This document shows positions 6,645 to 44,955 of a stretch of DNA of 47,821 nt, piece by piece. The notes beneath the pieces were generated by a model. The model was not told the origin of the DNA and did no database searches. It saw nothing but the letters and a program-made list of their open reading frames with translations. Source of the stretch: Bacteroidota bacterium (GTDB lineage: Bacteria; Bacteroidota; Bacteroidia; Bacteroidales; VadinHA17); contig JAUVKW010000002.1 of NCBI GenBank assembly GCA_030596025.1, positions 1 to 47,821 of the forward strand, given 5' to 3'. The position numbers were made by a program, and so were the translations under genes. The number at the start of each line of letters is the position of its first letter. Within the stretch, counting starts at the first letter, position 1.

Positions 6645-6794
6645 ATCTTTTATGAGAAGTGACATTTTGACTGAAATTAGAATTTTTCATAAAATTTTTA
6701 ACTTTGGCTCAAGTATTGAAGTACTTCAGGCTATGAGCCACTTTGCAAAAAATATATTTATAGCTCAATAAGAATATCTAAAAAAATAACACCT

Positions 6795-7538: not shown

Positions 7539-7545
7539 GAAGCCA

Positions 7546-8433: not shown

Positions 8434-8474
8434 GCAATTTTAGTTCCGGGAATATATAGTAAAAATAATCTTCA

Positions 8475-11658: not shown

Positions 11659-14109
11659 CTAATGATTTTTTACATATTTCTCAAGCCATTGTAATGTTTC
11701 CCAGTGTTTATGCAACAATGACTCTCTTGCAGCATATCCATGACTTTCCATAGGTAACATTACCAGCCGAACAGTAGCACCATGCCCTTTTAAGGCAGAA
11801 AAATAACGTTTACTCTGTATAGGGAAAGTGCCACTATTATTATCTGCAATTCCATGAATAAGTAAGATCGGATCTTTTACCAGGTCTGCATGCATGAAAG
11901 GAGACATGGTATAGTAAAGTTCAGGAGCCTCCCAATAAGTTCTTCTTTCACTTTGAAAGCCAAAAGGGGTAAGAGTTCTGTTATAGGCACCACTTTCCGC
12001 GATACCTGCAGCAAACAATCTGGAATGCGTCAGGAGATTTGCGGTCATAAATGCACCATAAGAATGGCCACCTACAGCAACTCTTTTTGGATCGGTAACT
12101 CCCATTTCAACAGCTTTATTAATGGCTGCTTCAGCATTCGCCACCAATTGCTCTACAAATCCATCATTTGGTTTTACTTCCCCTTCCCCTACAATTGGGA
12201 AGGCTGCATTACTAAGAATAGCATAACCCTGAGTAACATAAGAAAGAATTGATCCCGCACGCACCCTTGTAAATGAATAGGGCGAACCCGAAACCTGACC
12301 TGCTGCTTTAGCATCCTCATATTCCCTTGGATATGCCCATAAAACAGTTGGCAATGGGCCATCTTTTTCCTTATCATATTCTGCTGGCAAATACAGAGTA
12401 AAAGAAAGATCAATTCCATCAGCCCTTTTGTATTTAACCAACTCCTTGGTAACACCTTCTAATGACGGATATGGATTTTCGAACTTTGTTATAGCTGATA
12501 TTTTTCCGCTCTTCAGGTTTCTTAAATAATAATTCGGAGGGAGTTTTTTTGACTGCCTGCTGGTTATTACCAGATTCTTTTTAATACTTATGATTTCCTG
12601 AACAGATTCATAGAATGGAGCTTCAGACCTCCATAATTCAGTAGTTTCTCCACTCTGGATATTATATTTCCTTATAAATGGTCTGTCTCCTTCCGGAGAA
12701 GAACCCTGACCAGTAAGTATAAGAAACTTGCTCTTGTCAGTAAAAAGCAGTACCCGCCTTCCATAATTGTTTCTCGATGTATAAAACCTTCCCGGGTTGC
12801 CATACCTGTCATCGGTCTTATATTCCATCATGAGTTTCTTGCTTGTCATTGGATTTGAAGGATCAAAAGAGCTAACAATTCGTGACCTGTCTTTTCTCAT
12901 ACCTTCATATAATACTGCAAAATTCTCATTCCCCCAGGTAATATTTGAAAACCTGGTTTTTGTAGCAATAAATTCAACAGGATCTCCTTGAAAAGGTGCC
13001 TCAATCGTATAAAACTGATCTCTGTATTCCACTTCCTTCTTCGGGTTTCCTTCATCAAGGGCTTCAACCCAATAAGCTGTTGCCGGTTTATCTGCACGCC
13101 AGCCAAAAGATCTTGGTCCCGGAAAAACAACATCAAATCCCCGGGGAAGATTCTCCCGTAATGGCATATCATAAAGAACCTTCAGCTCCTTGCCCTTAAT
13201 ATCCCATATGCTGGTTTTTGTGGGGAAATAGTAATAAGGCACTACATAAGAGAATGGTTTCAATACTTCAGAAACCATTAAATAATGTCCATCAGGTGAA
13301 GGTGAAATACTTGAATATATTCCACCTGGCCCAATCTGCATTACTCCTGATCCATCATATATCATCGGCTGTGAAGTTGCAAAATATTCAAAGATCATTT
13401 TATCACCGGGATTTTTAAGAAGATCCTGAAAAGTACGTGCAGCTCCACGTTTTCCCCTGTTTTCCTGTACTACAGGTCCTGCTGGAGTTGATGAAGGTTT
13501 GGGTCTGGGTCCTCTTTCTGAATCAACCACCTGGAAAATAATTGACTGATTATCTGACAACCATGTAAAACCACCACTTCGGGAATATCTTCCTCCTCTT
13601 ACCAAAACCTGGTTTAGATTATCTGCAATTTTCTTTGCCTTCAGGTCTGACACATCACATACCCATAGTTCAATACTTTTTGCTGTAGTATTGGTAAAAG
13701 CAAACTTGCTTCCATCATTCGACCATGTAAAACCCGAGATCTTGAGATTTGATGGTAAGCCTGTAACTTTCCTAAGTCCTGTTCCATCTATTTTCATTAT
13801 GGAAATCCCAGTTTGGTATGATTGGCGGCTAGTTCCATTTGTTGCAGGATCTATCCTTAAACCTGCAATCCTCAGCTCCTCCCTGGAAAGATCCTCAATG
13901 GTTTTTAATCCCGGTCTTTCCAATAAGGCTACAAAAGAATTATCAGGACTGATTGAAACAGAAGGTGTTTGCCAGGCATCCACAACTTCAATAATTGCTT
14001 CAGGAGGCAGCTGGTATATCAGGCTTTCCTGCCCTTGAATAAACTGAGAAAGTCCCAGGAGTACGATAATAATTGCTGAAGAAATAATTCCAAAAAGTGA
14101 TTTTTTCAT
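11659..14109 (-). CDS. S9 family serine peptidase (prolyl oligopeptidase/dipeptidyl aminopeptidase-like), secreted
   Basis: A signal peptide and beta-propeller region precede a C-terminal alpha/beta hydrolase domain. The nucleophile motif is GGHSYGAFM, with later D and H (HGIADNN, ESHGY). I prefer the ATG at 14109 (MKKSLF) over the TTG at 14121. Confidence 0.9.
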   Translation of the reverse strand: MKKSLFGIISSAIIIVLLGLSQFIQGQESLIYQLPPEAIIEVVDAWQTPSVSISPDNSFVALLERPGLKTIEDLSREELRIAGLRIDPATNGTSRQSYQTGISIMKIDGTGLRKVTGLPSNLKISGFTWSNDGSKFAFTNTTAKSIELWVCDVSDLKAKKIADNLNQVLVRGGRYSRSGGFTWLSDNQSIIFQVVDSERGPRPKPSSTPAGPVVQENRGKRGAARTFQDLLKNPGDKMIFEYFATSQPMIYDGSGVMQIGPGGIYSSISPSPDGHYLMVSEVLKPFSYVVPYYYFPTKTSIWDIKGKELKVLYDMPLRENLPRGFDVVFPGPRSFGWRADKPATAYWVEALDEGNPKKEVEYRDQFYTIEAPFQGDPVEFIATKTRFSNITWGNENFAVLYEGMRKDRSRIVSSFDPSNPMTSKKLMMEYKTDDRYGNPGRFYTSRNNYGRRVLLFTDKSKFLILTGQGSSPEGDRPFIRKYNIQSGETTELWRSEAPFYESVQEIISIKKNLVITSRQSKKLPPNYYLRNLKSGKISAITKFENPYPSLEGVTKELVKYKRADGIDLSFTLYLPAEYDKEKDGPLPTVLWAYPREYEDAKAAGQVSGSPYSFTRVRAGSILSYVTQGYAILSNAAFPIVGEGEVKPNDGFVEQLVANAEAAINKAVEMGVTDPKRVAVGGHSYGAFMTANLLTHSRLFAAGIAESGAYNRTLTPFGFQSERRTYWEAPELYYTMSPFMHADLVKDPILLIHGIADNNSGTFPIQSKRYFSALKGHGATVRLVMLPMESHGYAARESLLHKHWETLQWLEKYVKNH

Positions 14110-14317
14110 TTTTATAAACAATTAATTAATATTTGTAATTTCAGTTAAGATTTATTAGACCAAAGAAACCATAAAATGATTTCATTCCTTTCAAAACATC
14201 ACTGCACGAAGCATTGCATGGTTATTGTTTTACCGTTTAATAGCTATTAACCCGGAAAATGCATACATTTTCTACGATTAAGACTATGGCAGGGAATATC
14301 AGAAGCTTTCCCTGTTT

Positions 14318-15412
14318 TTAGTAGATTTCTTTCAATACCCCAAGTACATCATTGCTGTTTAAATCAACAATATTATTGCCCATTCTGTCTTTTGTAAAAG
14401 ATCGCTCTACAATATCTTCTAAATGGCCTTTGCTTACATTCCATTCTCTCAAATTAAACTTTACAATATTTCCAGGGATGGTGAGAATTATTTTCTCCAA
14501 TTCTGAAAGGCTGTTTATTCCTGTTTTACGAAAAAGCATTTCCAGTTGGGACTTAATTGCTTTTTCATTGATTTTAAGTAAGGGAATAACTGGCATCGAA
14601 CAGGCAATTCCATGAGGAATACCATAGGAAATTGTTAATGGGTAGCTAATTGAATGTGCTGCTGCTGTTTTGGTATTTGAGAATGCTAAACCAGCTAAAT
14701 TTGAGGCTTTTAGAAGATTGTTTCGTGTCTCAATACCATTGGGGTTCTTTTTTAACTTTATTACATTTTGAAAAATAATACTAATTGCTTCAATTGCATA
14801 ATTATTGGTTTTTTCACTGGCGTTTTTATTCCAAATCGCTTCGAAGCTATGGCTTAAAGCATCTAAAATGGTTGTAATCGATAATTCTAATGGCAAACTC
14901 AATGTTAGAGAGCCATCTAAGATTGCTACATCGGGATATAATTCAGGATATGAAATAGAATACTTTTTTTTATCTGTCATATCCCAAATAGTACTCCACA
15001 TAGTAACTTCACTTGCGGTACCATGTGTTGTAGGAATAAATATTGCCGGTATTCGATGTGGGAATGGAGATTTTAGGCTGAACAATTTCTTTAATCCATA
15101 AATCTCTGTTCCCATGGCAGCCATAACTGTTTTTGCAGTATCCATTACGGAGCCACCTCCTATTGCAATTACTCCATCATAGCTATTATTCCTGCTAAAG
15201 TCAATTGCAAGTTGACAGCTGGACAATGTGGGATTGTTCTCTATTTCACTGAATATGATTCTTTTATCAAACAGGTTTAATAAACCGATCCGTTTAATAT
15301 TTCCAAAAGATGTAATAACCAGCGGATTATAAATACTAAGTTCAGAGATAGATTTAGTTAAAGCTGTTTGCCAATTATCAGTTTCAATAACTTTAACAGG
15401 ATTATAATACAT
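14318..15412 (-). CDS. Iron-containing (group III) alcohol dehydrogenase. Predicted from context to be a phosphonoacetaldehyde reductase (PhpC/FomC-like).
   Basis: 364 aa. It has the GGGSVMDTAK nucleotide loop and His-rich metal motifs (LSHSFEAIW, AAHSISYP, PHGIAC). It lies 25 nt downstream of the phosphonopyruvate decarboxylase gene on the same strand. Confidence 0.7.
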   Translation of the reverse strand: MYYNPVKVIETDNWQTALTKSISELSIYNPLVITSFGNIKRIGLLNLFDKRIIFSEIENNPTLSSCQLAIDFSRNNSYDGVIAIGGGSVMDTAKTVMAAMGTEIYGLKKLFSLKSPFPHRIPAIFIPTTHGTASEVTMWSTIWDMTDKKKYSISYPELYPDVAILDGSLTLSLPLELSITTILDALSHSFEAIWNKNASEKTNNYAIEAISIIFQNVIKLKKNPNGIETRNNLLKASNLAGLAFSNTKTAAAHSISYPLTISYGIPHGIACSMPVIPLLKINEKAIKSQLEMLFRKTGINSLSELEKIILTIPGNIVKFNLREWNVSKGHLEDIVERSFTKDRMGNNIVDLNSNDVLGVLKEIY

Positions 15413-15437
15413 TTGGAATAGATCAGATAAAATACTA

Positions 15438-16568
15438 CTACTTTTTCAGAAATTCAATTAGATTGCTCTTGTTGTCTACCGGTTTAATAGTAGGCCTTCC
15501 CAAATCAGCCCTTGAGCCTGGCTTAAGTCTAATTTCCACCAGGCCGGGGCCACTTTTCTCAAGAAACCCGGCAATTTTGGCTGAAAGTTCATCGCTTGTT
15601 TCAACATTTAGAATAGTTTTATAATTCATGGACCTAAAAGTTCCCTGAACATCTATTGAATCAATAGATGTTTTTTGGCCACCCACCGATTCATGCACAT
15701 AATTATTCATTAGAATATGATAAAAGTTATCCGGCTGAGAGTTACCAATCGTTGCCAGGCTACCCATATGCATTAATAATGCACCATCTCCATCAATGCA
15801 TATCACTTTTCTTTTTGGCTGTGCCAGAGCTATACCCAGGGCTATTGAAGAACAATGTCCCATTGAGCCAACAGTTAAGAAATCTTTAAAATGCGGTTCT
15901 CCATTTTTTTCCCGTATTTCAAATATCTCACGTGAAGTTTTGCCAGTCGTAGAAACAATCACAGCATCATCCGGGATATTCTTTATTAGAATTTCCAATG
16001 CTTCTTCACGCATCATGAGATGATCATCAATTTTTTCAGAAGTGGAATTATAATCGTCAAAAGTTCCTTTTCTTATAACAATAGCATAAGGTTGATTCCC
16101 GGAGACAGATTTTTCAATCCCTTTTGTAACTTTTTGGGGCCAGTCAACATCATCAGGAGATAAAATACAATAGGGTATATTCATTGAGTTCAGCAAATCT
16201 AATTGTACTTTACCCTGTTTAATATGCTGTGGCTCATCTTTAACTCCAGGCTCTCCACGCCATCCAATTAGCAGAAGAATGGGAATTGAATACACTTCCG
16301 GGTCGGCAAGTGATAATAAAGGATTAATGGCATTGCCTAAACCTGAATTTTGCATATAAACTAATGATACTTTACCAGTACCAAGATGATAGCCTGTAGC
16401 TAAAGCAATAGCACTGCCTTCATTAACTGCAATAATATGCCGGTCATTTGACACATTATCATCAACACAAAGACAAAATTGTTTTAAAAGTGAATCTGGC
16501 ACACCTGTGAAAAAATCAATATTATTTTCAGCAAGTAGTTGAAAAAAATGTATTGGTTGAATGCTCAT
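15438..16568 (-). CDS. ppd: Phosphonopyruvate decarboxylase (ThDP-dependent; Ppd/AepY/Fom2-like)
   Basis: 376 aa. The ThDP motif is GDGALLMHMGSLATIGNSQPDNFYHILMNN (GDG-x-NN). Its start overlaps the stop of the upstream PEP mutase gene by 1 nt (TAATG on the minus strand at 16566-16570). Confidence 0.85.
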   Translation of the reverse strand: MSIQPIHFFQLLAENNIDFFTGVPDSLLKQFCLCVDDNVSNDRHIIAVNEGSAIALATGYHLGTGKVSLVYMQNSGLGNAINPLLSLADPEVYSIPILLLIGWRGEPGVKDEPQHIKQGKVQLDLLNSMNIPYCILSPDDVDWPQKVTKGIEKSVSGNQPYAIVIRKGTFDDYNSTSEKIDDHLMMREEALEILIKNIPDDAVIVSTTGKTSREIFEIREKNGEPHFKDFLTVGSMGHCSSIALGIALAQPKRKVICIDGDGALLMHMGSLATIGNSQPDNFYHILMNNYVHESVGGQKTSIDSIDVQGTFRSMNYKTILNVETSDELSAKIAGFLEKSGPGLVEIRLKPGSRADLGRPTIKPVDNKSNLIEFLKK

Positions 16569-17881
16569 TATTTATTTCCCGGAATAAGTGCTAATACCTC
16601 ATTAATTGAAATGCAATAATCATCAGATGCTTCTAAACCACGATCATGTTTTAATATAGATTCTGCTGTTTTGACCATAGCCGGGTAGGCACTTCTAACA
16701 AGATGGTTGCCATATATTACAATTTGAACTCCCAGTTTTTCAAAATCACTCACTGACATATGACTAAAAGTAGAGGGTACTACAACAAGTGGCACTTTTA
16801 TATCAAATTTTTGATAGGTCTTACAAAAATCAATAATTTCCTGTCCATCTTTCTTTTTACTATGAATCATAATTCCGTCAGCCCCAGCTGAAATATATGC
16901 TTTTGCTCTTTTCAGGGCATCATTCATGCCATTGTTTAATATCAAACTTTCGATACGGGCAAATATCATAAAATCATCTGTTATTAATGCATCTTTTCCT
17001 GCACGAATTTTTTCAGAAAAGTGTTCTATTGAATCCTGTTCCTGAAACACATCTGTACCAAATAATGAATTACGTTTAAGTCCAATTTTATCTTCAATAA
17101 TTACTGCAGAGACACCTAATCTTTCCATTGTGCGAACGTTAAATTGAAAATGTTCAATTTCCCCTCCTGTATCACCATCAATTATTATTGGTTTGGTGGT
17201 AACCTCAAGTATCTCTTCAACAGTTTGGAATCTGGAATAAAAATCAACAAGTTCAGTATCAGGCTTGCCTTTTGAAGTAGAGACTGTAAGGCTGCTTAAC
17301 CAGAGGGCATCAAATTCTCTAACCCCGCCGCTAACATATACTTTTGATTTTTCTACTATCAAACCGGTAATTCCATTATGGGCTTCCATTACACGCAAAG
17401 TGGGTCTTACACTTAACATTAATCGCAAAGATTTAAGACGCATATCGGGTGTTATCCCTCTTTTTTTTACTGCTTCAATTAATTGAGAGGATGAAATTCC
17501 TTTTGTGTATTTTGGCTCAATTAATTTACCATTCCACATTTTGAGGGCTTCAATAGCACGCTGACGTGTCTTTTTCTGAATACCCGTTTGCCAATCATCA
17601 CCATGTACCAGGAAATCTGGTCTTATTTTTTGCAGATTAGGAACATAATCCAATGACTTCTGTGGAACTACCTCATCAACACCTTTTAAACTCTCCACAA
17701 TGATTTTACGGTGATCATAGTCAGTATATGGAATGCGTTTATAGCTTGCAATGGCTTCATCTGTTAGTAAACCCACAATTACATAACCATATTTGCGTGC
17801 TTCGGCGATAATATTAAGATGACCTTCGTGAATAATGTCGGCCGCCATACCTACATATACTTTTTTTACTGCTTTGCTCAT
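16568..17881 (-). CDS. ppm: Bifunctional cytidylyltransferase / phosphoenolpyruvate mutase fusion (Fom1-like)
   Basis: 437 aa. The N-terminal ~140 aa is a HIGH-type cytidylyltransferase ([15 protein letters not shown] = HxGH, and later [10 protein letters not shown]). The C-terminal ~290 aa has the Ppm-diagnostic EDKxxxxxNS motif ([10 protein letters not shown]). Confidence 0.9.
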
Positions 17882-17966
17882 TATTATTATTTTGATTATT
17901 AGGTGCCCTGGAGTTGATGTTTTTGTAAATCAAATATATACAGCCTTAAAGTTATGAACAAAGAAA

Positions 17967-19178
17967 TTAAAATCCACGTTCTGCAATTGCACCATCATGC
18001 AGTTCGGCAATATAATTTTTATCCGGTACCCGCCAATTCCCATAACGTAAACTAAGATATTCTTCGGTATGTGCCGGAACCGGGATTTTACGTCCTTCCC
18101 ATACTATTTCATCCCTGGTATCGAAAAATTTTGCATCTACGTGTTTGAGAACACCGCTATCTATCCAGTGATATTTATCTTTTACCCTGTACACACAAAA
18201 TAAGTCAATATGAAAATTAACCTGTTGAAGTTTTTCCCAACTTGTCTTTATCTTAACAACCCTTGTATCGCCGCGAACCCAACATCGATTATATGTTTTA
18301 ACTTTCTTTTTCCGTATAATATAGCGTGGGAAAAATTTGAATTTTAAAGCTGCTGCCCTATCTGCATACTCAGCAGGAATGCTAATATCAGCATCATAAT
18401 CCCAGGGGATTAAATCCCCATCACGAACAATTCCAAGTAAAGTGCCGGCTTCAATCCAAAAGGGAATTTTATTTCTTTGAAGCTGATCAATAGTAAAAAG
18501 TAGCATTTCCTTCATTCTGGGAAGGTTATTACTATCTTGTAATTTAATCTTTTCTACAGGAATTTCCCCTTCTATTTTATTTTCAGGAATCGAATGAATT
18601 AAACTATCGTCTGCAAGAGCACCATCGTTAATCTGGGGCATCCAATTATCAGGTATTGATTGCCAGTCTCCATATCTATGATTTAAATAATCGTCAGTTT
18701 GTGATGGAATATTGTATGTGTTTCCGTCAAATTCTAACTTATCTAATTTATCAAAATACTTACTATTAATATGTTTACAATTTCGAATATCAACCCATCT
18801 AAATTCGTTTTTTTGCTTATACTTAACAGAAATAAACACTTTACTGCAAAAGTCTTTTGTTCCCCAACTATTTAATATGCTCAATGTAATAACTGAGCCA
18901 GGGAGCCACTTTCTGCGGGACATGTTTAGATAAGAATGAACACGATACAAAAACCCAAGTTTTTTTAGGGCATTCTGTAATACTACTAAATGCTGTTGAT
19001 CAACTGAAAGATAAACATCTTTCTCGCAACCTAGATCCATACCTTTTTTTTCACCCCAAACACCCAATAATGTATCAAAATCCAACCAAAACGGCACCTT
19101 ATTCTTATCAAGCAAATTGATCACATCCCTGAATAATTTTGTTTTTAGTTTCCGGTGAATATTTAATAGCTTAATCAT
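17967..19178 (-). CDS. LicD-family phospho(no)transferase with two tandem LicD-like domains (the N-terminal copy is degenerate)
   Basis: 403 aa. The C-terminal half has the LicD signature IPFWIEAGTLLGIVRDGDLIPWDYDADISIP. The N-terminal half repeats the scaffold (VPFWLDFDTLLGVWGE...; YLNHRYGDW versus YLSLRYGNW) but lacks the DxD. Confidence 0.75.
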   Translation of the reverse strand: MIKLLNIHRKLKTKLFRDVINLLDKNKVPFWLDFDTLLGVWGEKKGMDLGCEKDVYLSVDQQHLVVLQNALKKLGFLYRVHSYLNMSRRKWLPGSVITLSILNSWGTKDFCSKVFISVKYKQKNEFRWVDIRNCKHINSKYFDKLDKLEFDGNTYNIPSQTDDYLNHRYGDWQSIPDNWMPQINDGALADDSLIHSIPENKIEGEIPVEKIKLQDSNNLPRMKEMLLFTIDQLQRNKIPFWIEAGTLLGIVRDGDLIPWDYDADISIPAEYADRAAALKFKFFPRYIIRKKKVKTYNRCWVRGDTRVVKIKTSWEKLQQVNFHIDLFCVYRVKDKYHWIDSGVLKHVDAKFFDTRDEIVWEGRKIPVPAHTEEYLSLRYGNWRVPDKNYIAELHDGAIAERGF

Positions 19179-19390
19179 ATATTGTTTTGTTCTGCTTTAT
19201 ATAATTTCCTGGGCTTTATTAAGAAAAATGTGTGTTGGATTCAATGGTTCAGTCTTCCTGTCAGTCAGGATTAAATTAATGGGTACAAAAGTAACTATTT
19301 TTCTTTACAACACTCATTATAAAGGAATCTGAATACTTTAAAGTATTTCTTGAAATATCCATATCATGGTCCCAGGGAAAATTATGTTAC

Positions 19391-20548
19391 TCAGGCAGGT
19401 AGGATATGTTTATCGATAAACTCCCGAACAGCACCGGATCCTCCTTTCCGGTCCAGAATGATTATTTTGCTAATGCCCTTTATTACATCCACCGCATCAT
19501 TTGGACATGCTCTTAAACCAACTTTCTCCAAAAGTTCTAAATCATTAATGTCATCTCCTATATATGCAATATTATCTAAGCCAATATTTTCCTTTTCACA
19601 GATGTTCCTGACTTTCTCAAGTTTATTGTTTTTAGCTCCTTGTACCAAATAATCGATTTTTAGTTTTTTTGCCCTTCTCTCAACTATTCTTGTGTTTTCT
19701 GATGTTATAATGCCCGTTTTTATTCCCCTGTTGCGTAGCAACTCAATCCCCATTCCATCCCTTGTGTTAAATTTTTTCAATTCATCTCCCTGTTCAGAAT
19801 AGTACATACCGGCATCGGTAAGCACTCCATCCACATCAGTAAGGAATAACATTATTTTATCCGGTTTGTCCTGATATAAAACATATTTGTGCATTATTTT
19901 CTCTGCAACTATCCAATCTTCCTCCTCATCTATTTCCAATGCTGTATATTCAGGCATCTCATAAATAGCAATATTTCCTGACAGTCTGTTCTTATGTTCT
20001 CTTATATTATCAATAGTATTAATATAAAAAGCACCATTCTCAACCAGCTGTCCCTGGAACTGCTGCCTTCTTGGCCGGTTTCTATAATCATAATTTATTG
20101 GCTTGCCACTGAGATCCCAGAAAAACCGCTTTAGTCTTGAGCAGCTTAGAAGTGAATTTACTTTTTCATCCTTAAAAACATTTAGGGCTTCTTCAAAGTG
20201 ATGTTTTCTTGTAAAAGGAGAGGTTGCCTGTACCAGCATGAAAATATTATCATCACATAGTTTTACATGTTCAATATATTCCAACATAACACTTTCAGTA
20301 GATGCTGTGTCTGATGCATTCTTATCATCTCTATCATAGATTTCAAGCTTTGAAAAATTAAATCCTGAAATGGTTTCTTTTATTAAATCAGAATCTGTGG
20401 CTACAACAATTCTGTCAATATTTTCAGACCGGTTAAGTTCACTTGCAACCCAGTATAATAATGGCTTTCCACAAAGAATTTTTATGTTTTTCCCGGGTAT
20501 AGACTTACTACCTCCCCGGGCAGGAATAAAAGCTATTGTTTTAGTCAT
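19391..20548 (-). CDS. neuA: CMP-nonulosonate synthetase (NeuA-type cytidylyltransferase) fused to a C-terminal KdsC-like HAD phosphatase
   Basis: 385 aa. The N-terminus reads IAFIPARGGSKSIPGKNIK, the CMP-sugar synthetase P-loop. The C-terminal ~155 aa has HAD motif I (DVDGVLTD) and GDDINDLE. Its start overlaps the stop of the upstream NeuB-like gene by 8 nt. Confidence 0.85.
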   Translation of the reverse strand: MTKTIAFIPARGGSKSIPGKNIKILCGKPLLYWVASELNRSENIDRIVVATDSDLIKETISGFNFSKLEIYDRDDKNASDTASTESVMLEYIEHVKLCDDNIFMLVQATSPFTRKHHFEEALNVFKDEKVNSLLSCSRLKRFFWDLSGKPINYDYRNRPRRQQFQGQLVENGAFYINTIDNIREHKNRLSGNIAIYEMPEYTALEIDEEEDWIVAEKIMHKYVLYQDKPDKIMLFLTDVDGVLTDAGMYYSEQGDELKKFNTRDGMGIELLRNRGIKTGIITSENTRIVERRAKKLKIDYLVQGAKNNKLEKVRNICEKENIGLDNIAYIGDDINDLELLEKVGLRACPNDAVDVIKGISKIIILDRKGGSGAVREFIDKHILPA

Positions 20549-21416
20549 TCTTCCGATATTTTAGTTTTTCCCTTTGTGCCTGTTCAATATTTAAAATCTC
20601 CTTATCCTTATAATTCAATGCCTTATGTGTTGCCTTAAGGTCTCTCGCCAATTTCCTAATTCCTTCAGGCTCTAACGAGGCTGCATGATCAGTTCCTTTC
20701 CATGTACGATCAAGGGTATAATGTCTCTCAATATACTCCGCTCCCAGTGTATATGCAGCAACATCAACAGCAATTCCAAGGTGATGGCCACTAAACCCTA
20801 TTGCTTTTACTTTAGACTCATACTTCTTTCTTAAGTTCAAAATCTCAAGAAGTGCTACATCTTCAAAAGGGACCGGATAACCAGAAGTACAAGCATATAT
20901 AACCACATCCTTTGTCCTGTTAAATCTGTCAAAAAGCTGTAATATGCCATCAATTTCATCCCTGGTTGTCATACCTGTTGATACATGAATTTCCCCATTG
21001 TAGTTTTTAGCCAACCATTCCATCATTTCTACATTATTATTACAGGCAGAAGGTATTTTTATCAATTTTGGATTCAATGAGCCTATCTCCTTTGCAGATG
21101 TAAGCTCCCATACCGAGCTTGAATATTCGATTCCAAAACCTTCACAGCATTTTTTTAACTCTGCATGCTGTTTCACATTAAATTCCAAATACTCACGATG
21201 GGCCCCATAGGAACCCCCATATGAGTTTATTGGATTTGGGTGGGGCGCATTGTATTGTTCTTCAGTAAGTAAGTCTTTATTGTTTCTTTTCTGAAATTTT
21301 ACAACATCAGCATTCCCGTACAGCTTTGCCACTTTGACAAGTTCTTTGGCTATATCAAGATCTCCCTTGTGGTTGCAACCAATCTCAGCGATTATTTTTG
21401 GATGATTATAATTCAT
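20541..21416 (-). CDS. neuB: NeuB-family nonulosonate (sialic acid/KDN 9-phosphate-type) synthase, short form without the C-terminal SAF domain
   Basis: 291 aa. It has IIAEIGCNHKGDLDIAKELV, KFQK and HYTLDR, typical of the NeuB TIM barrel. The ORF ends about 50 aa short of canonical NeuB, so there is no SAF/antifreeze-like domain. Confidence 0.85.
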   Translation of the reverse strand: MNYNHPKIIAEIGCNHKGDLDIAKELVKVAKLYGNADVVKFQKRNNKDLLTEEQYNAPHPNPINSYGGSYGAHREYLEFNVKQHAELKKCCEGFGIEYSSSVWELTSAKEIGSLNPKLIKIPSACNNNVEMMEWLAKNYNGEIHVSTGMTTRDEIDGILQLFDRFNRTKDVVIYACTSGYPVPFEDVALLEILNLRKKYESKVKAIGFSGHHLGIAVDVAAYTLGAEYIERHYTLDRTWKGTDHAASLEPEGIRKLARDLKATHKALNYKDKEILNIEQAQREKLKYRKND

Positions 21417-21711
21417 TTCTCTGTTTTTTCGGTTTTACCAAATTCAATCTTAAGTATTTAATATCGTAAAACAATAACTTAAACGGGATTAATCACAATA
21501 ACCTGATACATACTTTAAGTTAAATAATTTTCAACTCTAAAATATAATAATTCAACAATCAACAACAATGATAATGATTTTAGACAAAATATGTCTAAAT
21601 GTCACATTACAATCCATTAATTTGATTTTAATATCCAATTTGAATTCTAAACATATAAAGGATATATTCGCATTCTGGTTTGTGGGAAAACAAATTAGAG
21701 GAGGAAAGATT

Positions 21712-22731
21712 ATGGCTAATAAAGTATATGTATGTGGTACATTATACCATCTTTATGTTAGTAGTTTAAAAAATGTGGAGCCAGGCAACCAGGGGATTAA
21801 ATCATTGCTTATTGTGAATGACCACACCCCTAACCTATCTTCAATGGCTAAAAAGCTTGTTGAAAATAATTTTTTTTCTGACTATTTATATATCCCCTTC
21901 TATGAGATCAAAAGTAATCTGAAACTGGATACAGGGCTTATCAAAAGGAGTCTTTTCAGGAACAGAAATTTGATAAAATATGTTGAAGATAATTCTGATA
22001 TAAGAAAACAATTTGACTTCATCGGGGACTCAGAAATTAACTTGTTTTACAACCGTGGGATAAATTCTTTTTACTTCCTTACAAGGTTTAAGAAAAATAC
22101 CTTCATCCAACTCGAGAGTGGTATAGCCAATTATACTCCAATGGTTAGTATTCTTAAAGCCTTTAAGCGCAGATTCATACTGAAAACACCTCAGGGTGAT
22201 GGCAGGGACAAGCAAATAAAAAAAATTGAAGTGAAGTTTCCTGAAAATCTCCCCCCGGAGACAAGAAAAAAAGGGGTGAAACTTGATTTGCAGGACATAA
22301 TCGAATCTTTGGAAAATAGCAGAAAACAAGAACTACTAAATATATTTTCCCAGGGGCATAGTTTTTCATTAAATAACAATAAAAAACTTATCCTGATTAC
22401 CCAGCCCTTATCTGAAGATAAATTCATTACAGAGGATTACAAGATCTCTCTCTACAATAAGATCCTAAATGAATATGCTTCAGACTTTGAGGTGTATCTA
22501 AAGCCCCATCCAAGGGAGATAACCGAATACAAGGACAAATTTGATATTGATATAAATGAGCTTCCCCGAAACTTTCCACTTGAAATATTGAATTTTTCTA
22601 CCGAGATCGTATTTGATAAAGGGATAACTATTTTTTCCGGGGCCCTGAATAATCTTGAAAATATCGGGGAACGTATCTTTCTGGGTCAGGATTATGATAA
22701 GAAGCTGATCCAGAGAAAAAGGATAATTTAA
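21712..22731 (+). CDS. Putative GT52-like (Lst-type) sialyl/nonulosonyl transferase
   Basis: It carries YLKPHPRE (the HP motif of bacterial sialyltransferases), IFSGAL shortly after, LILITQPLSED, and an ESG at the position of the D/E-D/E-G motif. The order matches what I recall of Neisseria Lst. I chose the ATG at 21712, preceded by AGAGGAGGAAAG, over the ATG at 21568. Confidence 0.55.
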   Translation: MANKVYVCGTLYHLYVSSLKNVEPGNQGIKSLLIVNDHTPNLSSMAKKLVENNFFSDYLYIPFYEIKSNLKLDTGLIKRSLFRNRNLIKYVEDNSDIRKQFDFIGDSEINLFYNRGINSFYFLTRFKKNTFIQLESGIANYTPMVSILKAFKRRFILKTPQGDGRDKQIKKIEVKFPENLPPETRKKGVKLDLQDIIESLENSRKQELLNIFSQGHSFSLNNNKKLILITQPLSEDKFITEDYKISLYNKILNEYASDFEVYLKPHPREITEYKDKFDIDINELPRNFPLEILNFSTEIVFDKGITIFSGALNNLENIGERIFLGQDYDKKLIQRKRII

Positions 22732-23028
22732 GCTAATTTTGCTGCTGATACTTCAGAGGGAGCAGAAGATTTATTAATTATTATTAGAGAAAAAAATACA
22801 GCATTATTGAAGTAAAATATTGATCATTTGTCTTTATAAAAACATCCAGCATAACATATTTTTTCCTGAAATAGGAATGAAAAAACTTTAATATTACAGT
22901 TTTTGAAAAATCCTTTACAAATGCTGAAAATATGATTCCGACAGATGACTGGATAAAAATCTTACAAAATTAAACCTGATTCCCAATATATTTGGATAAT
23001 TTTACCCAATTGTCTTTAAAAAAATGAA

Positions 23029-23796
23029 ATGCCGAAGATTTCCGCAGTTATCATTAGTTATAATGAAGAAAAATATATAGGAAGGTGCCTTGAATCTCTA
23101 CAACAAGTAGCTGATGAAATTGTAGTTGTGGATTCCTATTCTCAAGATAAAACCAGAGAAATTTGTAAGACCTACAAGGTGAGATTTATAGAACATGAAT
23201 TTGAAGGCTATAGGCAACAGAAGAATTGGGCTATGGCCCAGGCCGAAAATGATATAGTACTTTCACTGGATGCTGATGAATGTCTGTCAGAAGAACTGAA
23301 AAATTCTATACAAAATGTAAAAAGCAGTTGGGAGGCGGATGCTTATTCTTTTAACCGCCTTAATAATTATTATGGGAAATGGATCAAACATTCAGGGGTT
23401 TATCCGGACAGGAAAATAAGATTATTTGACAGAAGAAAGGGAAAATGGGGTGGTGTTAACCCACATGATAAGTTCATAGTAAATCCTGGGGAGAAATATA
23501 AGTTTTTAACCGGAGATCTTCTACATTATGTCCAGGACTCAATTGATGATCATGTTGACAAGATCAGGTTGTTTTCCGGAATCAATGCCGGGGAATACTA
23601 TAAAATGGGGAAAAATTCTTCCTTTCTAAAGATTCTTGTTCATCCTTCATGGAGATTTTTTAAATCGTATTTTTTTAATATGGGGTTTTTAGATGGCTAT
23701 TATGGCTTTGTTATATGTTCCTTAAATGCCTATTCAAGTTTTTTGAAACATGTTAAAATCAGAAAGCTAAATATGAAAAGTAAGGATAAATCATAA
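23029..23796 (+). CDS. Glycosyltransferase family 2 (WaaE/KdtX-like)
   Basis: 255 aa. It has ISAVIISYNEE, VVVDSYSQD and a DxD (LDADE), typical of a GT-A fold GT2. Confidence 0.85.
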   Translation: MPKISAVIISYNEEKYIGRCLESLQQVADEIVVVDSYSQDKTREICKTYKVRFIEHEFEGYRQQKNWAMAQAENDIVLSLDADECLSEELKNSIQNVKSSWEADAYSFNRLNNYYGKWIKHSGVYPDRKIRLFDRRKGKWGGVNPHDKFIVNPGEKYKFLTGDLLHYVQDSIDDHVDKIRLFSGINAGEYYKMGKNSSFLKILVHPSWRFFKSYFFNMGFLDGYYGFVICSLNAYSSFLKHVKIRKLNMKSKDKS

Positions 23797-23822
23797 TGTC
23801 AAAATAATAAAATACATCTATT

Positions 23823-24512
23823 ATGAAGATAATAATACTTGCTGCCGGCATTGGTTCAAGACTGGGAAATCCTTTCCCAAAACCATTAACTCCCCTAAAA
23901 AATGGCAAAACCATAATGCAACAACAGGTAGAAAAACTAACTTCTTACTTTTCTCTTGATGATATATCAGTAATCATCGGGTTTAAAAAGGACCTGATCA
24001 TGGAAAGCTTCCCTGATCTTAGTTATATCTATAACCAATCCTTCGATCGTACAAACACATCAAAAAGCCTGCTAAAAGGTCTTAAGAAATATCCAAAATC
24101 TTCTATCTTATGGTTAAATGGAGATGTAGTATTTGACGAGAAGATATTGGAATATATATTACCCTATATTGCTCAGGATGCTTCATTTGTAGCAGTAAAT
24201 AATTCTGAGGTTGGAGATGAAGAAGTAAAGTACACTCTGGATAAGGATAAATATATTAACCTGATATCTAAAGAAGTGAAAAATGGCCTTGGAGAGGCTG
24301 TAGGCATAAATTATATTGCTAACAAAGACCTGTCTTCGTTTACAGGCAGATTAGAGGAATGTAAAGACATGGATTATTTTGAAAAAGGTCTTGAGCTGGC
24401 AATACAGAATGATCATATAAAAGTAAAAGCTGTAGATATCTCTGAATTTAATTGTGTGGAAGTTGATTTTGAAGAAGACCTGGAAAATGCAAATAGATTA
24501 TTTATTAAATAA
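23823..24512 (+). CDS. LicC/PntC-like nucleotidyl(cytidylyl)transferase
   Basis: 229 aa. The N-terminal signature is IILAAGIGSRLG..PKPL. Overall colinearity with LicC extends to the C-terminal VEVDFEEDLENA segment. Confidence 0.75.
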   Translation: MKIIILAAGIGSRLGNPFPKPLTPLKNGKTIMQQQVEKLTSYFSLDDISVIIGFKKDLIMESFPDLSYIYNQSFDRTNTSKSLLKGLKKYPKSSILWLNGDVVFDEKILEYILPYIAQDASFVAVNNSEVGDEEVKYTLDKDKYINLISKEVKNGLGEAVGINYIANKDLSSFTGRLEECKDMDYFEKGLELAIQNDHIKVKAVDISEFNCVEVDFEEDLENANRLFIK

Positions 24513-24514
24513 TT

Positions 24515-25558
24515 ATGAAGGCCATTCTATTTTGTGAGCTGCCTTACTCTTATGAAATATTATATCCCCTTTACAAAGCAGGTTTAAAAAGGGGCTACAA
24601 ACAGTTATGGTTTATCCCGGAAGCTGTTAAATCTCAACTCAAGCTGGACCCGGATCTAGAGATGACCTCCAGCATGAAGAATCTGGATGATTTTCAAAGC
24701 GATGCAATCCTGGTGCCAACCAATTCTATTCCACATTATCTCAGGGGTGTTAAGGTTCAGATATTTCATGGCTTTGCAGGAGAAAAAAAAGGCCACTTCA
24801 GAATAAGACATTATTTTGATCTGTACCTTACCCAGGGGCCTTATTTTACCAGGCAATTTAAGGCATTTGCAAAAAGGCATAAGAATTTCCATGTCGTGGA
24901 AACCGGCTGGTCAAAACCAGATCTTTATTATCAGGAACAATTATCCTTTCAACAAAAGAAAAAGGAAATCCTGGCTAATAACAGGGTCAAAACAATTGTT
25001 CTTTATGCCCCAACTTTCTCTCCTTCTTTATGCTCTGCCAAAGACCTGCTTCCTGAACTAATTTCACTGGCAAAGAGTGAACCAATTTATATGTTTATTA
25101 AGTTTCATGATAAAATGGCTCCTAAAACTATTCATGAATACAAACAAAGTTTTGACGGAATTGAGAACGTTGAAATTATGAACCAGAAAGATATCATCCA
25201 GGTCTTGAATATTAGTGATTATTTAATCTCAGATACCTCTTCCGTAGTTTATGAATTTATATTATTGAATAAACCGGCACTTACCTATAGATCCGGATCT
25301 AAAAATATTAACTGGCTTAATATTCGCAACTCTCAACAATTAATTCCTTCCTTCAAAAATATGGTAATAAATGACGAGTATGTATTAAAAAGGAAAAATA
25401 TAATTGCAGAATATCACCCATATACCGATGGAAAATCATCGGAAAGAATGTGGGATGCTATTGAAAAATATATATCGGAACAGGGTGTTCCTAAAAAAAG
25501 ACCATTGTCTTTTTACAGAAAACAAAAAGTTTATTCTCTTCACGGAAAATTAAGTTAA
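24515..25558 (+). CDS. CDP-alcohol phosphotransferase of the TagB/TagF (CDP-glycerol glycerophosphotransferase) family
   Basis: 347 aa. It has VLYAPTFSPS, IKFHDKM (at the position of the family His motif) and SDYLISDTSSVVYEFILLNKP. It starts 2 nt after the upstream nucleotidyltransferase stop. Confidence 0.75.
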   Translation: MKAILFCELPYSYEILYPLYKAGLKRGYKQLWFIPEAVKSQLKLDPDLEMTSSMKNLDDFQSDAILVPTNSIPHYLRGVKVQIFHGFAGEKKGHFRIRHYFDLYLTQGPYFTRQFKAFAKRHKNFHVVETGWSKPDLYYQEQLSFQQKKKEILANNRVKTIVLYAPTFSPSLCSAKDLLPELISLAKSEPIYMFIKFHDKMAPKTIHEYKQSFDGIENVEIMNQKDIIQVLNISDYLISDTSSVVYEFILLNKPALTYRSGSKNINWLNIRNSQQLIPSFKNMVINDEYVLKRKNIIAEYHPYTDGKSSERMWDAIEKYISEQGVPKKRPLSFYRKQKVYSLHGKLS

Positions 25559-26127
25559 TGACTTACCTGGAAACTATAGAAAAAGCCATAAAGGTAATGA
25601 GAAATGGAGGGATTATTCTATATCCCACTGACACAATCTGGGGTATTGGTTGTGATGCAACCAGGGAAGATACCGTAGAAAAAATATACAAACTTAAGGA
25701 AAGAAAAGACCGGAAAAGTATGCTGGTGGTAGTAAGCAATTCTGAAATGATTGCAGATTATGTACAGGAAGTTCCATCCATTGCCTGGGAGCTTCTTGAT
25801 GCTGCAAATGATCCGCTAACCATAATTTATCCAGGGGCAGTCAAGCTGGCAAATAATTTGGTAAGTAGCGATAAATCTATAGGTATACGAGTCTGTAAAA
25901 GTGAATTTTGCAAGGACTTGATCTCAAGATTCAGAAAGCCAATTGTTTCCACCTCCGCCAACATTTCAGGAAATACTTTTCCGAAAAACTTTCAGGAAAT
26001 AGACAGAAAAATTAAAACCGGGGTAGATTATATTTGTGATGTACCACAAATAAAGTTAAGCCCCGGAAAACCATCATCTATCATTAAGATAGGCCTGGGA
26101 AATGAGATTAAAATAATACGAAAATAG
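25558..26127 (+). CDS. tsaC: L-threonylcarbamoyladenylate synthase (TsaC/YrdC family)
   Basis: 189 aa. It has ILYPTDTIWGIGCDA, KERKDRKSM and VSTSANISG. Its start overlaps the TagF-like stop by 1 nt (TAATG at 25556-25560). Confidence 0.85.
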   Translation: MTYLETIEKAIKVMRNGGIILYPTDTIWGIGCDATREDTVEKIYKLKERKDRKSMLVVVSNSEMIADYVQEVPSIAWELLDAANDPLTIIYPGAVKLANNLVSSDKSIGIRVCKSEFCKDLISRFRKPIVSTSANISGNTFPKNFQEIDRKIKTGVDYICDVPQIKLSPGKPSSIIKIGLGNEIKIIRK

Positions 26128-26130
26128 GGG

Positions 26131-26841
26131 CTAGTCCCGTTTTTTAACATTCCCGGAACCACTTATACGAGCATCCACAGTTGCATTTCCATAGTAACTT
26201 ACATCACCACTTCCTGAAACAGACACCTCCAGTCTCGACTCTGCATATACACTGGCGTCACCTGACCCACTAATTTTCACTACAGCTTTTTCAACTTTAA
26301 AATCAGAAGCATCCACGTCACCAGAGCCACTAATGGCTATGCGTAAATTGCCGGCAACTTTAGAACCTGCAATCTGAATATCTCCTGAACCGGAAATCCT
26401 GGCAGAAACATCATCAAATACAAGCTCATCGAGATCGATCATTCCACTCCCACTTACAGAGAGGCCTAATTCAGACCCCTGTATCAAGGTAAGGTTCCTA
26501 ATTGTCCCTGAACCCGATACAGACATTTCGTCCCAATTAGGAGAACTAATCGAAATTTTTACTTTCTGGTACTTCGAAGGCCAGCGACGCGTATCATACT
26601 TAATCTTTAGTTTCCCACCTTCTACAACTGTTACAATATGCTCCAGGGTAGCCGGGTCTCCCACAAGAATCAATTCAGTTTTGGTTCCTTGTGAAATTTC
26701 AACATCCGCAGAAATAGCAAGTCCAAGTGCACTAAATTTACCTACATTTCTTTTTTCCTCCTTATCCGCTGAGGCATAACTATTTATCCCTGCCAGAAAT
26801 GCAGTTAAAACTAAAAAAGCAATCATTTTCCCTTTCATCAT
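26131..26841 (-). CDS. Head GIN domain / DUF2807-type secreted beta-helix protein
   Basis: 236 aa with a signal peptide. Seven quasi-periodic [VI]SGSG[DTMN] repeats occur about every 20-25 aa. Confidence 0.7.
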   Translation of the reverse strand: MMKGKMIAFLVLTAFLAGINSYASADKEEKRNVGKFSALGLAISADVEISQGTKTELILVGDPATLEHIVTVVEGGKLKIKYDTRRWPSKYQKVKISISSPNWDEMSVSGSGTIRNLTLIQGSELGLSVSGSGMIDLDELVFDDVSARISGSGDIQIAGSKVAGNLRIAISGSGDVDASDFKVEKAVVKISGSGDASVYAESRLEVSVSGSGDVSYYGNATVDARISGSGNVKKRD

Positions 26842-35357: not shown

Positions 35358-35368
35358 TAAAGCTTGTT

Positions 35369-44939: not shown

Positions 44940-44955
44940 AAAATTAATCGATAAG

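Follow-up and report, generated by a model that had tools for sequence, protein, structure and literature searches.

An island of genes with predicted roles in the tailoring of surface glycans lies at positions 14318-25558 of a 47,821-nt stretch of DNA (the window) from a member of the Bacteroidota (contig JAUVKW010000002.1). Open reading frames (ORFs) of at least 80 amino acids were counted in the island, and the window proteins were scanned with Pfam and NCBIfam models, the whole 47.8-kb window being covered at an ORF length of at least 120 amino acids and an E-value of at most 1e-3. Ten intact ORFs were found in two divergent blocks, six on the minus strand followed by four on the plus strand. 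They comprise a phosphonate cassette, a branch for 2-keto-3-deoxynononic acid (KDN) and a core of a family 2 glycosyltransferase (GT2), an NTP_transf_3 nucleotidyltransferase (NTP3) and a TagF/TarL-like protein. Comparison with related DNA resolved the island into three modules that meet in a mosaic at sharply defined breakpoints of the DNA. The original prediction had described a composite glycan-tailoring island with a phosphonate branch, a KDN-type branch and a second activation/transfer pair. Our analysis supported this view, and all families named in it were recovered in place by the scans. It had also spoken of eleven consecutive genes; its own gene list and our count both give ten, to which a decayed LicD gene is added.

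Genes of the three modules

The four genes of the phosphonate cassette (module C) are all encoded on the minus strand. A fusion of a cytidylyltransferase (CyTase) domain with phosphoenolpyruvate (PEP) mutase (Ppm), of the Fom1 type, is located at 16568-17881 (PF01467, CTP_transf_like, and PF13714, PEP_mutase). It scored 390.5 bits against TIGR02320 (cutoff 319.6) and carries the catalytic motif EDKxxxxxNS, which sets Ppm apart from the rest of the isocitrate-lyase superfamily. The N-terminal domain matched PF01467 with 57 bits, contains an HxGH-type motif in the form HEGH and is 60% identical (80/133 residues, E 7e-53) to the CyTase domain of Fom1 (PDB 5x3d). For Fom1, the formation of CMP-HEP from 2-hydroxyethylphosphonate (HEP) was shown (Cho et al. 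2017, as related in PMC6697681). The phosphonopyruvate decarboxylase Ppd (15438-16568; TIGR03297, 465.5 bits, cutoff 312.5) possesses TPP_enzyme_N and TPP_enzyme_C domains, and its gene starts at the last base of the CyTase-Ppm stop codon (16568). It is followed by an iron-dependent alcohol dehydrogenase (Fe-ADH; 14318-15412; PF00465 and PF25137), a predicted phosphonoacetaldehyde reductase of the PhpC/FomC type. The best NCBIfam match of this protein was TIGR03405 (Phn_Fe-ADH) with 241 bits, below the cutoff of 424, the next family reaching 162 bits; the gene adjoined ppd in all relatives inspected. No aminotransferase domain was present among window ORFs of at least 120 amino acids. Because of this absence and the position of Fe-ADH beside Ppm and Ppd, the predicted product of the cassette is HEP rather than 2-aminoethylphosphonate (AEP).

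The fourth gene of the cassette encodes a tandem LicD protein (LicD2; 17967-19178), in which PF04991 (77 bits) matched in two stretches. The protein arose by internal duplication, and its halves are 28% identical (E 5e-25). The residues Trp259, Asp260, Asp262 and Asp264 of the C-terminal half (W-D-x-D-x-D) are invariant in 116 of 116 family members and the motif is missing from the N-terminal half, so that the N-terminal copy is predicted to be degenerate and the C-terminal copy to be catalytic. The sole match in the PDB was FKRP (E 4.5e-8), a CDP-ribitol-using enzyme. The tandem-LicD family is rare, with about 200 proteins in 5.8 billion, and LicD2 was found beside CyTase-Ppm, Ppd and Fe-ADH in every context inspected. 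This constant adjacency to CyTase-Ppm is the one observation that points to the use of a CDP- or CMP-activated donor, and the family is likely to represent a CMP-HEP transferase.

Module B, the KDN branch, consists of NeuB, NeuA-HAD and a GT52 protein. NeuB (20541-21416, minus strand; PF03102, 220 bits) is short, with 291 amino acids and no SAF domain. It scored 205 bits against the N-acetylneuraminate synthase equivalog (cutoff 400) and also stayed below the PseI cutoff. It is 65-68% identical to Bacteroides NeuB proteins whose genes precede NeuA-HAD, and it is predicted to be a KDN-9-phosphate (KDN-9-P) synthase using mannose-6-phosphate (Man-6-P). Its gene overlaps that of NeuA-HAD (19391-20548, minus strand) by 8 bp, and the pair was kept in most of the best 80 of at least 568 matching loci. 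NeuA-HAD is a predicted CMP-KDN synthetase fused to a predicted KDN-9-P phosphatase. The NeuA half matched PF02348 with 74 bits and NeuA structures with E-values down to 6e-37. The HAD half, of the KdsC/HAD-IIIA type, marginally passed the KDN-9-P phosphatase model NF058599 (180.7 bits, cutoff 180). Its best PDB match was 3e81 (E 1e-41; titled 'Acylneuraminate cytidylyltransferase'), which we take to be BT1713 of Bacteroides thetaiotaomicron. In that organism, the route runs from Man-6-P via KDN-9-P and KDN to CMP-KDN (PMC6200933). The GT52 protein (21568-22731, plus strand; PF07922, 72.1 bits, cutoff 26.1; PF07388, 48.8 bits) belongs to the sialyltransferase family and is a predicted KDN transferase. 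Its gene is syntenic with neuB in L032, L112 and L114-L116, such L-numbers (L001, L112 and so forth) being labels of comparison loci from other genomes or metagenomes.

Module A, the core, extends over 23026-25558 on the plus strand and ends at tsaC. It encodes the GT2 protein (23029-23796; PF00535), NTP3 (23823-24512; PF12804, 57.8 bits) and the TagF-like protein (24515-25558). The AlphaFold2 (AF2) model of NTP3 had a pLDDT of 92. Foldseek placed PntC (6pd1/6pd2; query TM-score 0.81-0.83) and LicC (1jyk; 0.81) at the top, narrowly ahead of inositol-1-phosphate cytidylyltransferase (IPCT) and GlmU, in alignments of 19-24% identity. By phmmer against the PDB, no sequence match to LicC or PntC was obtained even at E-values up to 10. 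Homologues of NTP3 number at least 8000. Identities of 66-98% were recorded for the best 120 listed, which mostly belong to Bacteroidota where the organism is named. The island had been credited with three cytidylyltransferases of three different folds or families. Three nucleotidyltransferase families are present indeed, the nucleotide specificity of the third, NTP3, being a prediction. They represent two folds, since PF02348 and PF12804 are both GT-A-type nucleotidyltransferases according to the Pfam clans.

The TagF-like protein (347 amino acids; PF04464, Glyphos_transf, 67 bits) gave an AF2 model with a pLDDT of 90, and TagF (3l7m) was its top fold match. A profile of its family aligned the motifs APTF, KFHD and SDTSSxxYEF with TarL (8va1, 3.8e-16), and it also matched Cps3D (3.7e-9) and UDP-GlcNAc 2-epimerases (2e-4). 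With 36 bits for TarL (cutoff 1000) and 30 bits for TarF (cutoff 550), the protein fell below the equivalog cutoffs. Judged by its sequence, it is a member of the TagF/TarL family that is not assignable to a named enzyme. A role as nonulosonate transferase or NeuC-like epimerase, raised by weak matches to BFO_1060 and Epimerase_2, was rejected on two grounds: many genomes have the NTP3-TagF pair but no Neu genes, and the sequence motifs align with TarL rather than with epimerases.

NTP3 was in every case encoded directly upstream of a TagF-like protein, as seen in Lutibacter, Maribacter, Flavobacterium, Carboxylicivirga, Rikenellaceae and Cyclobacteriaceae. In about 12 of 17 loci the pair was accompanied by a small LicD, and tsaC often lay directly downstream. 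The island had been thought to combine two unrelated activation/transfer systems; NTP3 and the TagF-like protein instead form a pair that different families of Bacteroidota have kept, in most cases together with a small LicD. GT2 was kept with the pair in L112, L113, L032, L121 and L128. In Maribacter sp. HTCC2170 (L282 7684-9516, CP002157.1), TagF-like and GT2 domains are fused in one protein of 610 amino acids, an argument for joint action of GT2 and the TagF-like enzyme. The gene order in this strain is dapD, GT2, LicD, PF01467 cytidylyltransferase, NTP3, TagF-GT2 fusion and tsaC. In Cyclobacteriaceae (L114/L115, 69 collection blocks) and in L116, the pair occurred together with NeuA(-HAD), NeuB, LicD, a LicC-like NTP transferase and GT52. 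Thus, the association of nonulosonate genes, GT52, LicD and NTP3-TagF is recurrent and not due to chance.

Mosaic structure of the locus

Module boundaries were set by blastn comparison with relatives; for the stretch between GT52 and GT2, a MAFFT alignment contained too many gaps to be of use. For module C, the homologous DNA unit was 14317-19206. Precisely this span aligned with L201 (78% of nucleotides identical) and L003 (73%). The edges coincide with the Fe-ADH stop codon and with a point 28 bp upstream of LicD2. The DNA of module B (19410-22730; NeuA-HAD, NeuB, GT52) is 75% identical to L032, a locus from a Bacteroidales metagenome-assembled genome (MAG). For module A, blastn homology ran over 23026-26547 and included tsaC, with identities of 97% to L112, 86% to L113 and 68% to L032.

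The slot between the left flank and tsaC differs in content among relatives. L113, whose TagF-like gene is 86% identical, has the order S9 peptidase, dapD, LicD, NTP_transf_3, GNAT, LicD and core, with neither Neu nor Ppm genes. L032 carries NeuA-HAD followed by a polysaccharide pyruvyl transferase, NeuB, GT52 and the core, and lacks phosphonate genes and the S9 peptidase. L112, an independent metagenome contig, contains all ten genes in the order of the window with amino acid identities of 89-98%. As close relatives carry A, A plus B, or A plus B plus C, the modules have been exchanged independently. The repetition of the whole gene order in L112 also answers the question of chance adjacency that the original prediction had raised. 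The accompanying question of co-inheritance received a divided answer: the nearest relatives hold the modules apart (core in L113, core and KDN branch in L032, phosphonate cassette in L201 and L003), and HEP genes together with NeuA and NeuB were found again in Lachnospiraceae, Paenibacillus and Alteromonadaceae.

The S9 peptidase gene forms the left flank in the window (11659-14121, minus strand). It is 89% identical to the copy in L113 and absent at the syntenic position in L032, so the left border of the variable slot differs between relatives. In L113 and Maribacter, dapD is found at this border; it is not present in the window.

Traces of replacement were detected between GT52 and GT2. 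The gap of 297 bp (22732-23028) contains no ORF longer than 23 amino acids. A search of it by tblastn with the 199-residue LicD of L113 revealed 78.6% identity over 28 amino acids (E 2.8e-9), and blastn fragments matched L113 7609-7682 and 7959-8041. These pseudogene fragments constitute a LicD remnant at 22739-22894 on the minus strand; the counterpart in L113 is intact and divergent from GT2. In L112 the gap measures about 62 bp, apparently as the result of a deletion that removed the relic. A second LicD relic was considered at 19351-19374 and treated as a chance match of 8 amino acids (E 0.71, wrong polarity).

In a comparison with L112 (14318-27438), all ten genes exhibited dN/dS values of 0.05-0.45, indicating purifying selection. 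Synonymous divergence was uneven: it amounted to 0.17-0.33 for the HEP cassette, 0.26 for GT2 and 0.15 for NTP3, values 3-6 times higher than the 0.04-0.09 obtained for the Neu and GT52 genes, the TagF-like gene and the flanking housekeeping genes. This pattern suggests recombination tracts, i.e. separate histories inside one gene order. Neither flanking direct or inverted repeats nor Rfam elements were detected, and no integrase or transposase domains occurred among the window ORFs scanned. Cassettes were probably swapped by homologous recombination in the flanks.

The pyruvyl transferase of L032 has a relative in the window, at 2150-3325 on the plus strand (PF04230). This gene is 73% identical to the L032 copy, which lies directly downstream of NeuA-HAD. 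In the window it has moved to a site about 16 kb away and has the inverse orientation; mutL and an ion-channel gene lie in between, and a class I methyltransferase gene (979-1992, minus strand) stands beside it. The gene is a candidate distal member of the glycan system of the island. A simple replacement of an L032-type pyruvyl transferase by the HEP cassette was rejected because the window retains this copy.

Elsewhere, the genes of module C are part of a canonical operon with the order MsbA-like ABC exporter, tandem LicD, CyTase-Ppm, Ppd, Fe-ADH, TagF-like, TagF-like. It was found in L197, L199/L200, L201, L203 and L001-L003, the hosts being Marinimicrobia and other uncultured bacteria (MAGs and metagenome contigs), some of them marine by source. 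A CDP-alcohol phosphatidyltransferase gene sometimes follows the TagF-like genes. Taken as a whole, the operon resembles a self-contained HEP-polymer or HEP-lipid system. The TagF-like protein of the window is 34% identical to the first TagF-like protein of the operon. As judged from the homologous span, the phosphonate genes of the window are a recently grafted four-gene cassette excised from this operon.

On the right, the island borders on tsaC (25558-26127, plus strand; Sua5/YciO/YrdC family, PF01300), whose start is the last base of the TagF-like stop codon (25555-25561). The adjacency is kept in L112, L113, L032, L120, L121, L126, L128 and L282 and spans Bacteroidales-like MAGs to Flavobacteriaceae (Maribacter sp. 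HTCC2170). TsaC is probably a conserved boundary gene outside the pathway. Beyond it follow genes for a DUF2807 protein, rimM, rpsP and dnaE. Other neighbours in the window are unrelated: a sigma-54 response regulator and its histidine kinase (33990-36901), a 1055-residue beta-helix protein with a type IX secretion system (T9SS) C-terminal sorting domain (38000-41167) and a SusC/SusD-like pair (41778-46491).

Distribution of phosphonate and nonulosonate genes

The neighbourhoods of CyTase-Ppm genes were surveyed in 111 loci, one per GTDB species, taken from two scans; at least 583 such loci exist as matches overall. Scoring was performed with small hidden Markov models built from the sequences of this analysis within windows of about 10 kb, and the 70 loci with at least 5 kb on both sides (within L001-L031 and L202-L281) were evaluated. 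All Fisher p values are uncorrected and ignore phylogeny. TagF-like genes were present in 20 of the 42 loci with Fe-ADH (HEP-type) and in 1 of the 28 loci without it (p 4.5e-5). Separate LicC/PntC-like NTP transferases showed the opposite distribution (12/42 versus 24/28, p 2.5e-6). HEP-type clusters thus go with TagF-like proteins and clusters lacking Fe-ADH with a separate LicC/PntC-like nucleotidyltransferase. LicD was found in 13 of the 42 loci with and 17 of the 28 without Fe-ADH (p 0.026). NeuB (6/42, p 0.07) and NeuA (7/42, p 0.04) were confined to Fe-ADH loci, none of the 28 others containing either gene.

NeuA and NeuB occurred together in five HEP-type loci: L005 (Lachnotalea glycerini DSM 28816), L250 (Paenibacillus nanensis DSM 22867), L263 (a proteobacterial MAG, also with GT52), L267 (Aestuariibacter) and L270 (Paraglaciecola hydrolytica S66). 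A further HEP locus with both genes, L092 from a Lachnospiraceae MAG, was found through NeuA-HAD. In L005, a single strand encodes NeuA, NeuB, a methyltransferase, TagF and an unknown protein, followed by an NTP transferase, CyTase-Ppm, Ppd, Fe-ADH and GT2. In L092, HEP and KDN genes are interleaved with those for a phosphomannose isomerase, for Maf-type domains and for four proteins with a TagF domain, which in two cases is fused to GT4. A protein of 1295 amino acids in the same locus (5106-8993) comprises an Fe-ADH-like region, a TagF domain and an MptE/Maf-like domain, and a choline-binding-repeat protein is also encoded there. The neighbourhood survey called for by the original prediction therefore showed that Ppm does recur with NeuA and NeuB and that the combination is uncommon, with 5 of 42 HEP-type loci and 1 of the 80 best NeuA-HAD loci.

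Proposed pathway, alternatives and significance

From the domain identities, motifs, module boundaries, synteny and co-occurrence described above, the island is probably a mosaic surface-glycan tailoring locus, in which three modules for the addition of KDN, HEP and a second phospho-alcohol sit side by side in a recombination-prone slot next to tsaC. The substrates, the order of steps, the acceptors and a single glycan shared by all three modules are proposed as follows. PEP mutase would convert PEP to phosphonopyruvate, Ppd would form phosphonoacetaldehyde, and Fe-ADH would reduce it to HEP. The Fom1-like CyTase domain would yield CMP-HEP, from which the C-terminal copy of the tandem LicD would transfer the hydroxyethylphosphonyl group to a sugar hydroxyl. 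In the second branch, the short NeuB would condense PEP and mannose-6-phosphate to KDN-9-P, the HAD half of NeuA-HAD would remove the phosphate and the NeuA half would make CMP-KDN, so that GT52 could attach KDN to the glycan. GT2 would add a hexose. The LicC/PntC-fold NTP3 would activate a small phospho-alcohol and the TagF/TarL-like enzyme would transfer it. The phosphonate would end up on a KDN-bearing glycan. Priming, polymerization or flipping and export would be encoded elsewhere in the genome. As the original prediction had stated for the window, Wzx/Wzy, initiating transferases, exporters, LicA/LicB, NeuC and polyol-phosphate supply families were all absent from its ORFs of at least 120 amino acids at E-values up to 1e-3.

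Each module is of a kind already described. The three-enzyme logic, the CyTase-Ppm fusion and the Ppm motif are those of Fom1, Fom2 and FomC in the fosfomycin pathway of Streptomyces wedmorensis, and CMP-HEP is expected here as there. Fom3, FomD and Fom4/HppE are, however, missing from the window and a LicD transferase follows instead, which implies that CMP-HEP would be a transfer donor rather than a transient intermediate. The Pnt pathways, which employ PntC and LicD, likewise activate a phosphonate by cytidylylation before a LicD-type enzyme attaches it to a glycan of the cell surface (Rice et al. 2019, PMC6697681). The characterized Pnt systems use AEP, an aminotransferase and a PF12804 PntC, whereas the window has a predicted HEP branch with Fe-ADH, a PF01467 domain and a rare tandem LicD. 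Nucleotidyltransferases fused to Ppm are common, PF01467 fusions accounting for 23.6% of Ppm proteins (PMC6697681). Polysaccharides esterified with HEP are an established class of products, as in the exopolysaccharides of Stackebrandtia and Glycomyces, members of a different phylum, and 8.5% of ppm neighbourhoods are of the HEP type (Li and Horsman 2022, PMC8942020).

The KDN branch resembles the pathway of B. thetaiotaomicron (BT1714 synthase, BT1713 phosphatase and CMP-KDN synthetase) in its short NeuB and KdsC-type HAD phosphatase, and the NeuB-NeuA-HAD pair is 59-68% identical to that of Bacteroides species. It differs in the linkage of the KDN genes to GT52, a phosphonate cassette and the TagF/NTP pair, and the substrate, Man-6-P or N-acetylmannosamine-6-phosphate, is a prediction for the window. 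TagF/TarL and Cps3D-type capsule polymerases share with the TagF-like protein the motifs of the C-terminal domain and the GT-B fold; the gene of the TagF-like protein is paired with that of a nucleotidyltransferase and, in Maribacter, fused to a glycosyltransferase. In contrast to TagF/TarL, the window protein, with 347 amino acids, has no polymerase N-terminal extension, comes from a Gram-negative host and scores far below the equivalog cutoffs. The lipooligosaccharide (LOS) of Haemophilus and Neisseria is decorated by means of the lic1 phosphocholine operon and the GT52 sialyltransferase Lst. There, too, a LicC-fold activator, LicD and GT52 decorate a surface glycan; unlike these systems, the window has neither the LicA kinase nor the LicB permease, the sugar predicted for it is KDN from de novo synthesis, and the predicted LicD donor is a phosphonate. 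The original prediction knew of no characterized example of the combination, and in the literature searched we found none: no paper described an HEP cassette together with a nonulosonate pathway. The text of the ppm inventory (PMC8942020) contained no mention of nonulosonate genes that we found, and no paper linking the two was found either. Likewise, the literature searched yielded no description of the tandem-LicD family as an HEP transferase or of a preference of HEP-type clusters for TagF-like partners, and nothing relevant on CMP-HEP outside fosfomycin biosynthesis.

Several observations weigh against the proposed pathway with its single KDN- and HEP-bearing glycan. The host is uncultured and the locus is known from its sequence. 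Fe-ADH and NeuB scored below the NCBI equivalog cutoffs, and the TagF-like protein matches the folds of TagF and of UDP-GlcNAc 2-epimerases about equally. The HEP cassette and the KDN module each occur without the other, and the nearest relatives carry the modules separately; NeuA and NeuB joined only 5 of the 42 HEP-type loci, and Ppm occurred in just 1 of the 80 best NeuA-HAD loci. NeuA-HAD and LicD2 lie 212 bp apart, and this gap includes a promoter-like match to TAnnTTTG, so that the HEP cassette may be transcribed separately from NeuB-NeuA-HAD. Counts of TAnnTTTG gave a weak hint of promoters upstream of LicD2 and GT2, and a scan for sigma-70 promoters and intrinsic terminators, whose models are ill-suited to Bacteroidota, performed no better in the window than in shuffled sequence. 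Finally, the canonical operon has no glycosyltransferase gene, and its ABC exporter and CDP-alcohol phosphatidyltransferase are a hint that the product might be lipid-linked in that setting. Part of these observations would fit a recombination hot spot beside tsaC that collects glycan genes, each module modifying a different glycoconjugate such as lipopolysaccharide core, capsule or glycoprotein. Separate inheritance in the closest relatives, replacement at the site as documented by the LicD relic, the recombination tracts indicated by the synonymous divergence from L112 (0.17-0.33 in the HEP cassette, 0.04-0.09 in the flanks), a possible own promoter of LicD2 and the rarity of Ppm beside NeuA-HAD all point in this direction. 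The gap upstream of LicD2 and the independent inheritance of the modules keep such separate targets under consideration. On the other hand, the same functional sets stand together in the distant loci L114-L116, L092, L005, L267 and L270. Moreover, the cassette lies immediately downstream of NeuB-NeuA-HAD on the same strand, L032 has a glycan-decorating enzyme, the pyruvyl transferase, at this very position, and all enzymes of the island must feed glycans built elsewhere, since it brings no genes for assembly. For these reasons we favor one shared glycan and regard independent targets as a considerably less likely, though serious, alternative.

CMP-HEP might also act as a C-P analogue of CDP-glycerol, and the TagF-like enzyme, alone or with LicD2, could then use it as a building block for a teichoic acid-like phosphonate polymer, in which HEP units would be linked via their free hydroxyl and alternate with KDN or hexose. 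Chemical reasoning allows such an extension for HEP and not for AEP, which has no hydroxyl. The frequency of TagF-like genes within 10 kb of HEP-type loci, the two TagF-like genes directly after Fe-ADH in the canonical LicD2 operon, the 34% identity of the window protein to the first of them and the four TagF-domain proteins among the HEP and KDN genes of L092 are in line with this idea. Yet the association statistic is uncorrected for phylogeny, the TagF-like protein of the window belongs to the resident core and is paired with NTP3 in loci without Ppm, the cassette arrived without its own TagF genes, and no TagF-family enzyme accepting a phosphonate donor was found in the literature searched. 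The window itself does not give specific support to a polymer, and the use of CMP-HEP by TagF-like and LicD enzymes for phosphonodiester-linked, teichoic acid-like polymers, here with KDN, appears improbable. Less probable still, to the point that we give it little credence, is a role of the phosphonate genes in making the head group of a phosphonolipid, or a natural product that is a small phosphonate molecule, in place of a glycan decoration. Fom1-, Fom2- and FomC-like enzymes do begin fosfomycin biosynthesis (PMC6697681), and the canonical operon has its MsbA-like ABC exporter and CDP-alcohol phosphatidyltransferase. The latter two were left behind when the cassette moved, the window ORFs scanned include no radical-SAM methyltransferase, HppE/HEPD/MpnS-type oxygenase, ATP-grasp protein or nonribosomal peptide synthetase, and the cassette kept a LicD-family transferase, a member of a family known for glycan transfer, which now stands among glycosyltransferases.

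If polymers of the HEP type were made after all, the canonical operon would define an unrecognized class of 'phosphono-teichoic' surface polymers and would be a possible source of HEP esters in marine dissolved organic matter, and the window would represent that chemistry grafted onto a sialic acid-type glycan. HEP esters are described as a major, poorly sourced part of marine organic phosphorus in PMC8942020 and references cited there. The link of the HEP branch to TagF-like enzymes is strong but uncorrected. With regard to a mosaic tailoring locus, the combination of HEP and nonulosonate genes is recurrent but uncommon, and cultured strains with analogous loci (L. glycerini DSM 28816, P. hydrolytica S66 and P. 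nanensis DSM 22867) allow tests of the chemistry, while Maribacter sp. HTCC2170 is a cultured strain with the core alone. Phosphonate-decorated glycans are phosphatase-resistant and alter surface charge and antigenicity. The slot beside tsaC represents a clean natural experiment in the modular swapping of anionic surface decorations: the core occurs in it by itself, joined by KDN, or joined by both KDN and a plug-in HEP cassette.

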